DNA of 64,000 bases, taken from a phage. The stretch lies in sequence record PZ386957.1. The stretch is one strand, 5' to 3'. The position numbers and the translations under genes were made by a program. This document shows, piece by piece, positions 41,450-47,256 of the stretch. Position 1 is the stretch's first letter. Every line of letters starts with the position of its first letter. A model generated the notes under the pieces. The model was not told the DNA's origin, did not search any database, and saw only the letters and a list, made by a program, of their open reading frames with translations.

Positions 41450-41770
41450 TTAGTCCTCACTTATAAGGTCAAACCAATTGTTTTTCGCATAATGCTTAAT
41501 GCGTGCTTGATCTGCTTCCGATGGTGATAGATTCCATGCAACCACTACAACTTCTGACGCATCGTCATCCGTTTCTGATACCCAATGATTGTGATTCATA
41601 CAGTTATTTGCTATCGAGTGAGCAAATGATTTCATCACTGGAGACGTATAATCATAGTAACGGATTTTCAGATTTTCATCAACGTACAAATAGATCGTAT
41701 AAGGTTTATATTCAGTAACCAGTAACAGACAGTTACGCAATTCTGGGAAAATATTTTTAGTTAATTTCAT
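41450..41770 (-). CDS. HxHW-motif family protein, paralog 3
   Basis: 106 aa; IYLYVDENL...MNHNHW...VVVAWN. Confidence 0.65.
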   Translation of the reverse strand: MKLTKNIFPELRNCLLLVTEYKPYTIYLYVDENLKIRYYDYTSPVMKSFAHSIANNCMNHNHWVSETDDDASEVVVVAWNLSPSEADQARIKHYAKNNWFDLISED

Positions 41771-41972
41771 ATTCTAGTTCTCCGTAATACACGGTAATCC
41801 ATTTTTCTTCATACTTTGTATCTTTCCAACACACAATCCCGTTTACTGTGCAATCTTTGGAATTGACGAATGATTCATATTGTTCTGCATCTTCCATCAT
41901 TGCATGAGCGGTCTTTTCATCGAATATATCGCAGATCGCTTTATATGCTCGATAATCTTTAAATTTGCTCAT
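41757..41972 (-). CDS. Small protein, tandem paralog a (MSKFKDY...)
   Basis: 71 aa from ATG at 41972; about 50% identical to the adjacent 41975-42184 product. Confidence 0.6.
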   Translation of the reverse strand: MSKFKDYRAYKAICDIFDEKTAHAMMEDAEQYESFVNSKDCTVNGIVCWKDTKYEEKWITVYYGELEYEIN

Positions 41973-41974
41973 AA

Positions 41975-42184
41975 TTAAGACCACTCAAGAGTTTTTGAAA
42001 ACACATCTATCCATTGTTGAGTATATGCGGTTTCTTTCCATGATACAATACCAGTCGAATAATGGTTTTTGTTTCCAGAAAAGGACGGGCATTTTGAGGC
42101 ATCTTCCATCATCTTTTCGGCGAACTCTGGTTCGTATACTCGCAAGATCTGTTGATATGCTTTATAATCTTTAAATTTGCTCAT
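41975..42184 (-). CDS. Small protein, tandem paralog b (MSKFKDY...)
   Basis: 69 aa; shares MSKFKDYxAY...MMEDA...GIVxWKxTxY with the neighbour. Confidence 0.6.
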   Translation of the reverse strand: MSKFKDYKAYQQILRVYEPEFAEKMMEDASKCPSFSGNKNHYSTGIVSWKETAYTQQWIDVFSKTLEWS

Positions 42185-42449
42185 AATTGTTAACTACCTT
42201 ATCAGCTTCTTTTATTGTTTTTACATCAACTGCGATAATCCGTAAAGGTTCGTCGAAGGTCCACCAATGATCGTGAATATCGGCTTGTGATTTATCACCA
42301 AAGGAATCACGAATATCATTTTTACATTTATAGCCAATGTGACCTTCATAGTCAACATAAAGGTAATTATCGAAAATCGGCGTTTTTAAGATCATACCGA
42401 AAAATCTTTCTTTGTGTGTCTTATCCAGTGTTGCAGTAATTCTCATCAT
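42171..42449 (-). CDS. HxHW-motif family protein, paralog 4
   Basis: 92 aa; YLYVDYEG...IHDHWW...IIAVDV; AGAGGAA RBS. Confidence 0.7.
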   Translation of the reverse strand: MMRITATLDKTHKERFFGMILKTPIFDNYLYVDYEGHIGYKCKNDIRDSFGDKSQADIHDHWWTFDEPLRIIAVDVKTIKEADKVVNNYEQI

Positions 42450-42943: not shown

Positions 42944-43252
42944 TTATTCTTCATCTTCAACTTTATCTTTATATGCGTATTTCATAAATTTGTCTGCTAC
43001 TTTGTCGGCCTTTTCTGGTTTGACGTCTGACGCCAGGACAATGGCTAGATCGGTTTCGTCGTTCCCACCATACCAGTGATTATGTGTGTCGTTTTCATCA
43101 ATATAGAATTTATCACCTTCGTAAGTTCGAGCAAATACATCTAAATTCCCATCGATGTAAAAGATCCAATCTTCGTAAAGAATAACCGTATTAGCAAGGT
43201 TCTTGTTGCCTTCAACGAAAGGTTCGGTTACAAACAAATTGGTACGTTCCAT
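42944..43252 (-). CDS. HxHW-motif family protein, paralog 5
   Basis: 102 aa; IFYIDGNL...THNHW...AIVLASDV; GAGGA RBS. Confidence 0.7.
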   Translation of the reverse strand: MERTNLFVTEPFVEGNKNLANTVILYEDWIFYIDGNLDVFARTYEGDKFYIDENDTHNHWYGGNDETDLAIVLASDVKPEKADKVADKFMKYAYKDKVEDEE

Positions 43253-43308: not shown

Positions 43309-43629
43309 TTACACAAAATGGCGTGTCAATGCTTCTTTTGCTGTTCCGCTAAGACTTTCGATCTCGCCTGGCATAACATCAACTGCCAGAACTTCTACAA
43401 CATCCTCGGACCATAACCAGTGAGTATGACCTTTGTAGAACTTGATAACCAGACTACCTTCCTCGTCCCATTTAACGCTATCGCTAGCCCACCACACATC
43501 ACCGTCGATAAAGTTGATGTAAAGTACGCTACGCCACATAGAATTAGTTACTTTTAGGACCGCGCCTTTCATCTCTTCCACGGTGTGGTCTTCCATTTTG
43601 AAGACCTCGCCTACCTGAACTTTTGCCAT
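43309..43629 (-). CDS. HxHW-motif family protein, paralog 6
   Basis: 106 aa; LYINFIDGDV...GHTHW...VLAVDV; AGAGGTG RBS. Confidence 0.7.
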   Translation of the reverse strand: MAKVQVGEVFKMEDHTVEEMKGAVLKVTNSMWRSVLYINFIDGDVWWASDSVKWDEEGSLVIKFYKGHTHWLWSEDVVEVLAVDVMPGEIESLSGTAKEALTRHFV

Positions 43630-43902: not shown

Positions 43903-44379
43903 TTATTTTTCTTGATGCTCGCGCTCATACTTTTCGAAATAAAATTCTACTGGCTGGTCGTGGATTGACAGTAAGCCAAAGCGTTTAGCCGCGCGTAATC
44001 CCATGTTACGTTGAATGTACTTCTGGAAGTTCTCGCGTATACACTTACGCCAGTATTCTAAGCCCATACAGCTTTTATAAAGATTGCATTGCACACACGA
44101 CGGATTCATGTTATCAAGTATATCATGTTCCGGTTTATGCATTCCTACAACCTTATACTTCCACGATCCATCATCATTACGGGAAATTCGTCCATTTTCA
44201 TCATAGACTACTTTTGAGCGTCGCAATACTGGTTTGATGTGGTCTGCGTGCCAGCGATCCCCTAGTTCCTCGCCACAATAGGCACAACGTCCACCGTATT
44301 TCATTTTCAGGATCTGGCGTTGCTCTTTCTTTGACAATTTTTTAGGTTTAGGGGCTTTCGCCCCTTCATTATCACACAT
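43903..44379 (-). CDS. HNH endonuclease
   Basis: 158 aa; CAYCGEELGDRWHADHIKP (CxxC...HxDH) and later Cys pair; start overlaps DNA ligase stop. Confidence 0.75.
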   Translation of the reverse strand: MCDNEGAKAPKPKKLSKKEQRQILKMKYGGRCAYCGEELGDRWHADHIKPVLRRSKVVYDENGRISRNDDGSWKYKVVGMHKPEHDILDNMNPSCVQCNLYKSCMGLEYWRKCIRENFQKYIQRNMGLRAAKRFGLLSIHDQPVEFYFEKYEREHQEK

Positions 44380-45868
44380 CGAATACCTCTTTTACTGTAT
44401 TTGCAGTTGTCTTATCGTAGCGAATACGTTTGATGATTGGGAGAAATAACGAGAACTCCGGTTCATCTTCTTTACGTGACTTGCTGCGAATATACCCGTT
44501 ACATGTCATCTCAATGACTTTTCCAATCAGGTTATGACGATCAGACCATAGCATTTCTCGGTCTAGTTCATTTCGACGGTCAAACGGAATCACACGTTCA
44601 ATACCATCATCACCTTTTTCGGTTGTAGTGTCGGTTAATCCCGATCCGGTATTAGTCATCATTCGTCCACACGCACTACGGACAGTAAAACCGCCTACCT
44701 TATTAGGATCTTTACTATGCGGATATACATCAACAATTTCCGCATCGAAGTCAATCACTTCTTTAAATTTGACCTGATCTTTACTGCGACGATCTTCAAA
44801 TACGCCATGTAAATTTTTAAGGATAATGCCTTCTAAGCCCATGTTTACATAGCGATGATATACTTCGCGAGCTTCATCGATATTGTTAACTACAGTATTT
44901 TCGATTATCTGAACACGAGGATCGTTGAGTTCGTCAACAATCTGTTTTAGTTCTTCGAATCGATCTTTATATTGCTTCGTTGCTTTCTCATTTCCGTAGT
45001 ACACATCACGGTCGATAACATCCCAGACAGTGTAAACAATACACTGGGCTTCTTCTTTTGGAATAGTTCCTTTCAGTGATTTGTTGAGGATACCATTTCC
45101 GGTCTGACGATCTGCAACAACGGATTCTTTAACCGCTTCCGCTACTGGCGTTAATGGCATTTCCTCTTCTTCAAATATCCATGACAGAGTACCATCATAA
45201 ACGCTCTCAACGAAGTTCTGTGCTGGTGTTTGCGAAAGGGTAGGCATATATACCAATTCGCCATCTAGAACAATTCCACGGCCTCGTAGACGCTCTAAAA
45301 CAGCAAACAAATCATCAAGCCCCTGATAGGTATTGCCTGAACGGGTATAGATTGCTAATGTTTCCCCGTCAATGTCAGCCATCCCACGAGCGCCATCACT
45401 TTTAAGTTGTGCATACGCCGGATATTTGATATTAGCAATAGTCTTATCAGAATATGACGATGCAAGGTGACATGGTTGCTGAGGAATCAGTTTCTTCCAT
45501 ACCTTGTTTGCGGTAGTAGCGGAACAACCGCACTCCAGATCACGATTCAGGACCATCATTGCAACTTTAGCATCATCTTCTGACAAGCAAGTCAGAGTAT
45601 CGGTAACTAGCTGTAATGCAGCATTGCCAGTTACTTGACGCGTGGCAAGTTTATTTTTAAAGACCTGTAATGCACCGGATAAAGACAATACAGATGAATA
45701 ACGAGAAGGTTTATCGTATTTCTTTACGCCAAACGTAACCTGTTTGCAATATGCCAGATAAAAGCATTCTTTCAGCGTTTCATTGCTTGCAGATTCTTTC
45801 AGAATCTTTTCTTTCAGCGATGTTTTGTCCGTTGCCGAAAGCTGATTAATGATATTAAGAATTGACAT
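44372..45868 (-). CDS. 30: ATP-dependent DNA ligase
   Basis: 498 aa from ATG at 45868; KSDGARG adenylation motif and collinearity with T4 gp30 (TGNAA, DLECG, ANKVW, LDGELVY, NGIxNKSLKGTIxKEEAQ, GLEGIILKN). Confidence 0.93.
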   Translation of the reverse strand: MSILNIINQLSATDKTSLKEKILKESASNETLKECFYLAYCKQVTFGVKKYDKPSRYSSVLSLSGALQVFKNKLATRQVTGNAALQLVTDTLTCLSEDDAKVAMMVLNRDLECGCSATTANKVWKKLIPQQPCHLASSYSDKTIANIKYPAYAQLKSDGARGMADIDGETLAIYTRSGNTYQGLDDLFAVLERLRGRGIVLDGELVYMPTLSQTPAQNFVESVYDGTLSWIFEEEEMPLTPVAEAVKESVVADRQTGNGILNKSLKGTIPKEEAQCIVYTVWDVIDRDVYYGNEKATKQYKDRFEELKQIVDELNDPRVQIIENTVVNNIDEAREVYHRYVNMGLEGIILKNLHGVFEDRRSKDQVKFKEVIDFDAEIVDVYPHSKDPNKVGGFTVRSACGRMMTNTGSGLTDTTTEKGDDGIERVIPFDRRNELDREMLWSDRHNLIGKVIEMTCNGYIRSKSRKEDEPEFSLFLPIIKRIRYDKTTANTVKEVFDV

Positions 45869-46334
45869 TTTCACCTCGTTTTGTTAAACGTTCACGAATA
45901 TCATTGAGGATACTACAAAATTCTGATTCAGTCAATATAGTCTTTAATGGATCTGTTCCACCTATACTGTGACGCAATTTCTTATTTCCTGTAGCAAGCA
46001 ATGCTTTACAAAAATCTGGGTTATTCCGTGCCATCGTAACAAATGCCAGATGTACCAGTCTGTAATAATGCTCACTCATTCGATGAATCGGGCGACCCTG
46101 AAAATATAACATGTGATTCTCTATCTTTTCAGTCCTTCCGGTTCTTTTTGCTTTGCCACCGTGCATCAAAAAGATTTCTCTTTGTCTCTGAGGGTTCTTA
46201 AATCTTAACCCCTGTAAAAATCCTTCTGTGCTGTTAATATCGCAACCAAATAGACGGAATGGTCTTTTATTGAAATTACTCAACTCACCCGATGGATAAG
46301 GTCCACCAGCATAGATATCAATTTCAGAAGTCAT
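45855..46334 (-). CDS. NADAR (DUF1768/YbiA)-like protein
   Basis: 159 aa; N-terminal GELSNFNKRPFRLFGCDINSTEGFLQGLRF fits the NADAR signature (LSNF..PF...G..F.S.E...Q..KF). Confidence 0.55.
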   Translation of the reverse strand: MTSEIDIYAGGPYPSGELSNFNKRPFRLFGCDINSTEGFLQGLRFKNPQRQREIFLMHGGKAKRTGRTEKIENHMLYFQGRPIHRMSEHYYRLVHLAFVTMARNNPDFCKALLATGNKKLRHSIGGTDPLKTILTESEFCSILNDIRERLTKRGENVNS

Positions 46335-46488
46335 TGAAACTAATCTCGCTAATCAGAGAGAACGGATCATAATCGTCATGAGGAATATCGATAGTAATCG
46401 AATGAGGATTTACCCATACACCAAACTGGTCTTCTTCGGTGAATACTTCGGTATGAATTTCGTGGATGTTTACATTCATAGTTTTCAT
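46324..46488 (-). CDS. Small acidic protein (54 aa) overlapping the NADAR start
   Basis: ATG at 46488 with AAGGAA RBS; ends 11 nt inside the NADAR ORF. Confidence 0.45.
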   Translation of the reverse strand: MKTMNVNIHEIHTEVFTEEDQFGVWVNPHSITIDIPHDDYDPFSLISEISFNDF

Positions 46489-46540
46489 AATAAAAATTCC
46501 TTAATAATCAATAACTTACAAAATCATATAGCCAAAATAT

Positions 46541-46559
46541 AGGCGGGATTATTTCCCGC
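46541..46559 (-). terminator. Terminator after gene 31
   Basis: GGCGGGA-AATAA-TCCCGCC followed by T-rich sequence on minus strand. Confidence 0.6.
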
Positions 46560-46570
46560 CGTTTAAATCA

Positions 46571-46935: not shown

Positions 46936-47256
46936 TTATTTATAAATTTCGACGATCTGCGCTGGAGCCAATCCGTCTACGTGAATCAGTGTATCAAGCC
47001 CGAAGCTACGAAAACCTTCAACTGCAATTTCATATACTGGCAAAGATGTTTCTGATTCTTTACGCGGTTTTTCAACATTCGGAACTAACCATTTTTCGTA
47101 TGTTTCAAATGGCATCAATGCTGGATCGCGAGTAGCAATCATATCTCGGACAGTACCATCTTTCTTAGTAAACTGTAAAGCGTGAGTACCTACCGAAAAC
47201 ATTTTCTTTAGTGCTTCACGAAGTACGATATTATCAATTTGTTCAATCATTATCAA
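46936..47256 (-). CDS. Hypothetical protein (106 aa)
   Basis: ORF between cd and gene 31. Confidence 0.6.
   Translation of the reverse strand: MIMIEQIDNIVLREALKKMFSVGTHALQFTKKDGTVRDMIATRDPALMPFETYEKWLVPNVEKPRKESETSLPVYEIAVEGFRSFGLDTLIHVDGLAPAQIVEIYK

Follow-up and report, generated by a model that had tools for sequence, protein, structure and literature searches.

The locus studied here raises the question of whether a small phage protein with NADAR features could remove the ADP-ribose that a host toxin places on phage DNA, and whether the even smaller acidic protein encoded just upstream of it takes part in this function. The window, that is, the whole stretch of 64,000 nucleotides of phage DNA that was analysed (sequence record PZ386957.1), carries on its minus strand a 159-aa ATG ORF (positions 45855..46334) with a predicted pI of 9.75. 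It is preceded by a 54-aa ATG ORF (46324..46488, minus strand), the end of which overlaps the start of the larger ORF by 11 nt (ATGACTTCTGA on the coding strand; 46324..46334, minus strand). The original prediction, made from the sequence alone, had described the larger product as a NADAR-like protein and a plausible counter-defence factor. The coordinates, lengths and 11-nt overlap that it gave, as well as the acidity of the small ORF product, all proved correct upon comparison with the ORF list and calculation of pI and charge.

Comparison of the 1.1-kb region with phage records revealed 60 matches at 95–99% identity, all of them to Krischvirus, a genus of RB49-like coliphages. A 2003 record of RB49 (AJ550428) gives the names gp30.3 and gp31.-1 to the two ORFs, marks their ribosome binding sites and places them between gene 31 (co-chaperonin) and gene 30 (DNA ligase); RB49 gp30.3 is 99.4% identical to the 159-aa protein of the window. 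In all 25 Krischvirus records among the matches listed (60 records match), gene 30.3 is labelled as 'hypothetical protein', 'phage protein' or plain gp30.3. A search of viral contigs for related loci returned only two, both being near-identical Krischvirus contigs. Among four Krischvirus sequences, 30 of the 34 variable sites of 30.3 are located in third codon positions, which indicates purifying selection on gp30.3, a protein that is thus presumably functional. The 159-aa and 54-aa ORFs are genuine genes, and chance ORFs are ruled out. The internal out-of-frame ORF 30.3' (75 aa) of T4 has no counterpart inside the 30.3 gene of the window: the longest same-strand ORF found there in an alternative frame encodes only 37 aa from a GTG start (45962-46075, minus strand), and 30.3' is therefore not conserved here.

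The 159-aa protein matched Pfam family PF08010 (Phage_30_3) with 133.2 bits against a cut-off of 36 (E = 7.4e-39), the alignment covering positions 2–138 of the 138 in the profile. The match to the Pfam NADAR family PF08719 was 15.8 bits (E = 0.017), which is below the gathering score of 35.1, and in the NCBIfam scan the model 'NADAR family anti-phage protein' was far below threshold (13 bits versus a cut-off of 240). All 63 of the 63 aligned relatives match PF08010, and 13 of these also match Pfam NADAR at E ≤ 0.01. With the 159-aa protein as phmmer query, no NADAR was retrieved from PDB sequences; YbiA was reached by sequence only with a family profile (E = 7e-4), which aligned the S-x-E...Q..K motif. 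The profile did not reach 8bau and 8bat even at E ≤ 10, and the residue mapping to PnNADAR therefore rests on motif alignment and published equivalences. The sole phmmer match of the protein among PDB sequences, to a DltA ligase (E = 7e-4), was rejected as spurious.

An AlphaFold2 model of gp30.3, built with 14 homologues, had a mean pLDDT of 94.2 and a pTM of 0.89, and Foldseek searches of this model against PDB and against viral models both agreed with a NADAR (YbiA) fold limited to the core domain. Thus, the N-terminal NADAR signature on which the original prediction was based is real, the fold evidence being decisive, but it is weak at the sequence level. The two computational checks proposed along with it gave a corresponding picture: structure prediction recovered the NADAR fold, and the HMM search succeeded with the phage-specific PF08010 profile but remained under the gathering score with PF08719. 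The family is widely distributed, with homologues detected by tblastn in 1,510 phage records spread over the T4 superfamily and 976 cluster representatives obtained at E ≤ 1e-3 in an exhaustive HMMER scan.

Architectures not described for the T4-like single-domain proteins were also observed among metagenomic sequences. In nine of them (P0025, P0041, P0066, P0085, P0098, P0110, P0113, P0116 and P0152), the gp30.3-type NADAR domain is C-terminal in proteins of about 465–500 aa. Four others (P0020, P0068, P0114 and P0142) contain two matched stretches each, with N, A or Q in place of the catalytic Glu in the aligned stretch.

The function of this family has been established in T4. Schuller et al. 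(2023) reported that the guanine ADP-ribosylation performed by DarT1 is reversed by NADARs (PMC11543638); an RB49-type protein was not found in their list. In vitro, T4 gp30.3 hydrolyses guanine-ADPr and leaves thymine-ADPr intact (Toxins 2024, PMC11125620; also PMC12945103). Johannesman et al. (2025) renamed the T4 protein AdfN, for anti-DarT factor NADAR, and found that, following its deletion, T4 and T2 no longer form plaques on DarTG1 cells, while its expression rescues RB69 on such cells; AdfN is both necessary and sufficient for the DarTG1 resistance of T4 and T2 (PMC11825919). In the same work, the purified enzyme removed ADP-ribose from DarT1-modified DNA, and T4 AdfN did not counter DarTG2. 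The activity of T4 AdfN was weakened by the E36A and K43A substitutions and by loss of the C-terminal helix, the latter also resulting in DarTG1 sensitivity in RB69 (PMC11825919).

By both position, between genes 31 and 30, and sequence (38% identity), the protein of the window is the orthologue of T4 gp30.3, which supports the counter-defence idea of the original prediction. We conclude that this Krischvirus orthologue of AdfN is a minimal core-only NADAR that probably reverses DNA modification by DarT1. The proposed role should be refined in three respects: the case for this family has already been published, the predicted target is DarT1 (guanine) only, DarT2 (thymine) being excluded, and this orthologue, the activity of which is predicted, has Arg at the position of the phosphate-binding Lys. 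RB49 gp30.3 is a long-annotated member of a family whose activity and anti-DarTG1 role were published in 2023–2025, and this function is thus already known. The main practical value of the present assignment lies in annotation, since 30.3 in Krischvirus records can now be named an AdfN-type NADAR DNA ADP-ribosylglycohydrolase, a predicted anti-DarTG1 factor.

The residues expected of such an enzyme were analysed by counting their conservation over 163 members of the gp30.3 family. The catalytic Glu of the S-x-E motif is present as E37, aligned with E36 of T4 (E43 of PnNADAR), and Glu occupies this position in 159 of the 163 members. A His in the last strand, which distinguishes phage NADARs from those of the YbiA family, with Glu, and of the DarG1 family, with Asp (PMC11125620, PMC11543638), is also present: H122 in the L-R-H-S-I-G stretch aligns with H123 of T4, and 160 of the 163 members have His here. 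The C-terminal helix was predicted at residues 136–152 in the AlphaFold2 model, and the alignment extends to the last residue of the T4 protein. Two positions deviate from the common state. The phosphate-binding Lys (K43 in T4, K95 in E. coli C7 NADAR, K50 in PnNADAR) is replaced by Arg44, and the usual Trp at position 78 is replaced by Phe (W in 137 and F in 13 of the 163). At the Lys position, the family has K in 149 members, R in 11, Q in 2 and T in 1. Arg44 is shared with a 69%-identical relative (P0002) and is absent from two 60%-identical ones (P0003 and P0004), while elsewhere in the family at least eight further unrelated branches have Arg at this position.

These two replacements could mean that the Krischvirus NADAR has been weakened or inactivated and is retained for ADP-ribose binding or for another role. 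The K95R variant of the E. coli C7 NADAR fails to protect cells from DarT1 (PMC11543638), RB69 is only partially rescued by T4 AdfN carrying K43A (PMC11825919), and Arg at this position is a minority state. However, the same K95R variant still hydrolyses guanine-ADPr in vitro (PMC11543638), which suggests that a Lys-to-Arg change is compatible with catalysis but could lower its efficiency. Moreover, the recurrence of Arg in unrelated branches argues that it is tolerated, R44 has been kept in the P0002 relative, purifying selection is strong, and the protein retains E37, H122 and an intact C-terminal helix. A weakened or inactive protein kept for such a role is considered highly improbable. The natural Lys-to-Arg variant nevertheless provides a small testable structure–function question in NADAR enzymology, in which the class of mechanism is already known.

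If gp30.3 acts as an AdfN-type hydrolase, its mode of action can be proposed by analogy with the T4 enzyme. Once the host DarTG1 system is triggered, DarT1 would modify guanines of the phage DNA with ADP-ribose at N2, and replication would be blocked. Gp30.3 would then bind the ADP-ribose moiety, contacting its pyrophosphate through Arg44 and surrounding its distal ribose with Glu37 and His122, and hydrolyse the N-glycosidic bond, thereby restoring unmodified DNA and allowing replication to proceed. It should be taken into account that the characterised T4 enzyme is only 38% identical to gp30.3 of the window, and, as full activity of T4 AdfN was seen only during T-even infection (PMC11825919), its behaviour in another genus is uncertain. 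Both the enzymatic activity of gp30.3 and its specificity towards DarT1 products are thus predicted on the basis of the orthologue.

One could also hypothesise that gp30.3 is an active NADAR hydrolase with a substrate in Krischvirus other than DarT1-modified DNA, such as guanine-ADP-ribosylated RNA, DNA modified by YarT- or pierisin-like ART toxins, or soluble ADP-ribose derivatives. In vitro, G-ADPr is also removed from RNA by NADARs belonging to each of the four families, the T4 enzyme among them (PMC12945103), and R44 and F78 are found where other NADARs bind the pyrophosphate of ADPr, so that a change of substrate might underlie them. On the other hand, T4 and T2 genetics identified anti-DarTG1 activity as the phenotype of the orthologue, and three independently acquired phage NADARs all counter DarTG1 (PMC11825919). 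In addition, the common host range (E. coli) implies exposure to the same DarTG1 systems. A different substrate thus appears unlikely, and reversal of DarT1 modification is the preferred function of gp30.3.

T4 encodes another protein acting against DarT, AdfA (61.2), for which no significant match was found in the window (best tblastn hit with E = 0.32). None of the 487 matches of T4 61.2 in phages is less than 60% identical to it, as would be expected if they all came from close relatives of the T-even phages. AdfA is therefore probably absent from Krischviruses, and gp30.3 may be their sole recognisable anti-DarT1 factor. This would bear on attempts to predict which DarTG1-positive E. coli hosts therapeutic RB49-like phages can infect. 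No publication linking Krischvirus with DarTG was found in the literature.

Gene 30.3 is located in a tight string, 31.-1 > 30.3 > 30, downstream of a terminator-like GC-rich hairpin followed by a T-rich tract, which lies between gene 31 and 31.-1 (46542..46560, minus strand); a 'terminator' is annotated under the matching region in phages G2494 and G37-3. The 82-nt spacer that precedes 31.-1 contained no sigma-70-like promoter, the only type scanned for. Given the hairpin after gene 31 and the lack of such a promoter, expression of 31.-1, 30.3 and 30 would need read-through or an unrecognised non-sigma-70 promoter. Gene 31.-1 has a Shine–Dalgarno sequence AAGGA (46498..46502, minus strand) 9 nt before its ATG, and a ribosome binding site is annotated at the equivalent place in AJ550428. 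For 30.3, there is a weak Shine–Dalgarno GAG inside 31.-1 (46345..46347, minus strand), which is the ribosome binding site annotated in RB49. The overlap of 31.-1 with 30.3 has been kept in divergent relatives, being 11 nt in contig L006 and 8 nt in L007, where gp30.3 is 69% and 61% identical, respectively. Since the Shine–Dalgarno sequence is weak and the overlap is kept, translational coupling of 30.3 to 31.-1, as judged from these sequence features, is plausible.

A special meaning of the start/stop overlap of 31.-1 and 30.3 was considered and rejected, because overlaps of 8–14 nt are the norm in this string: the end of 30.3 overlaps the ATG of the DNA ligase gene 30, as annotated in RB49, by 14 nt (45855..45868, minus strand), cd overlaps 31.1 by 14 nt, and gene 30 overlaps the HNH gene by 8 nt. 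In T4, 30.4 overlaps 30.3 by 8 nt. Such overlaps therefore reflect ordinary T4-like gene packing, and the overlap alone implies no functional link between the two proteins.

The product of gene 31.-1 has a pI of 4.17 and a net charge of -10, with 11 Asp and Glu residues and only 1 Lys or Arg. It belongs to phrog_15277 (E = 6e-42), while no Pfam, NCBIfam or PADLOC family was matched. In a tblastn search of phage records, matches were found in 60 Krischvirus records only, and a large protein database added just a few divergent contigs. These divergent homologues, found in three metagenomic contexts, are 38–41% identical and equally acidic (L006 and L007/L008, 54 aa; P0167, called at 81 aa). Both the P-x-DDYDP-x-SL motif and the net charge of -10 are conserved in gp31.-1 homologues. 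In the two contexts examined, gp30.3 is 61–69% identical to that of the window, and the small ORF overlaps 30.3 in both. The AlphaFold2 model of gp31.-1, a beta-hairpin, was of low confidence (pLDDT 67.5). No similarity was detected between gp31.-1 and T4 30.4, nor with any ORF of at least 30 aa near gp30.3 in T4, KARL-1, PM2, Merlin and Asfd_1. Gene 31.-1 is a separate accessory gene restricted to the Krischvirus lineage.

The position of gp31.-1 makes it tempting to consider it a dedicated partner of gp30.3, acting as a cofactor, regulator or chaperone in a two-gene anti-DarT module. Adjacency and overlap have been kept where gp30.3 diverged to 61–69% and the small protein to 38–41% identity, the two proteins carry opposite charges (pI 4.2 and 9.75), and T4 AdfN appears to need some phage factor for full activity (PMC11825919). 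However, the contigs that carry the pair are close relatives with the same gene order, so that the adjacency may simply be inherited, and overlaps of this size are usual in the string. Furthermore, gp31.-1 is confined to the Krischvirus lineage, while gp30.3 in about 1,500 phage records is accompanied by unrelated small upstream genes or by none; the upstream genes of T4 (30.4), KARL-1, PM2, Merlin and Asfd_1 share no similarity with gp31.-1. The low-confidence model and the lack of any matched domain also argue against a dedicated partner, which is considered quite unlikely. That gp31.-1 is itself an anti-defence factor acting together with gp30.3 we judge very unlikely. If it were true, gp31.-1 could be a phage-encoded helper of the kind that T4 AdfN seems to require or, alternatively, a DNA mimic or DarT-binding inhibitor compensating for the Lys-to-Arg change in the Krischvirus NADAR.

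Several other genes of the window, all on the minus strand, deserve mention. Directly downstream of the DNA ligase gene, with an 8-nt overlap, lies a 158-aa ORF (43903-44379), the positional equivalent of RB49p212, an annotated HNH endonuclease gene; in T4, this place is taken by alt.1 and alt. The gene 31.1 homologue (46936-47256, 106 aa) matched Pfam WYL_2, an Sm-like SH3 beta-barrel (E = 2e-9), and also, weakly, a PHROG labelled as tail fibre protein. Four small ORFs of about 92–106 aa (41450-41770, 42171-42449, 42944-43252 and 43309-43629), with other ORFs between them, look paralogous: they share an H-x-H-W motif ('HNHWVSETDDD', 'HDHWWTFDEP', 'HNHWYGGNDETD' and 'HTHWLWSEDV') and, after it, an acidic stretch and '(A/V)VDV'. 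A tandem duplication is also suggested by two neighbouring ORFs of about 70 aa with a slight overlap (41757-41984 and 41975-42184), the starts of which, MSKFKDY(R/K)AY..., are nearly identical.

Among the known systems, E. coli YbiA (PDB 2b3w, PF08719) has Glu in the last strand, where gp30.3 has His122, and has been associated with swarming and with N-glycosidase activity on riboflavin intermediates, neither of which is a phage function. Gp30.3 therefore belongs to the same superfamily but to a different family, and is not of the YbiA type. It is not of the DarG1 type (BC4488 family; E. coli C7 and G. lovleyi NADAR, PDB 8bat) either. DarG1 NADARs have a catalytic Asp in the last strand and an N-terminal extension that forms an electropositive DNA channel, and are about 230 aa long, while the 159-aa gp30.3 has His in place of Asp and lacks the extension. 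It is an orphan without adjacent DarT1, its neighbours being 31.-1, gene 31 and gene 30, and the PADLOC scan gave no match. T4 AdfN is unable to substitute for DarG1 in uninfected cells. The same axis of defence and counter-defence includes AdfA (T4 61.2) and AdfB, two small proteins of phages that bind DarT and block it. No other precedent exists for a small anti-DarT protein without enzymatic activity, the role imagined for gp31.-1; AdfA and AdfB have no sequence similarity to it, and nothing ties gp31.-1 to DarT.

The closest known counterpart of gp30.3 is T4 AdfN. The loci differ in gene content: seven extra genes (30.4–30.9 and rIII) separate 30.3 from 31 in T4, where the window has 31.-1 alone, and 30.1 and 30.2 are located between 30.3 and 30 in T4, while in the window the ligase gene follows 30.3 directly. 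The proteins differ at the position of K43 in T4, which is Arg44 in the window, and at position 78, with Phe instead of the common Trp. Nevertheless, both proteins belong to PF08010, have the core-only NADAR fold and are encoded between genes 31 and 30. Their 38% identity extends from end to end, including the C-terminal helix, and the catalytic Glu, the phage-NADAR His and this helix, which is needed for full activity of the T4 enzyme, are all present in gp30.3 of the window.
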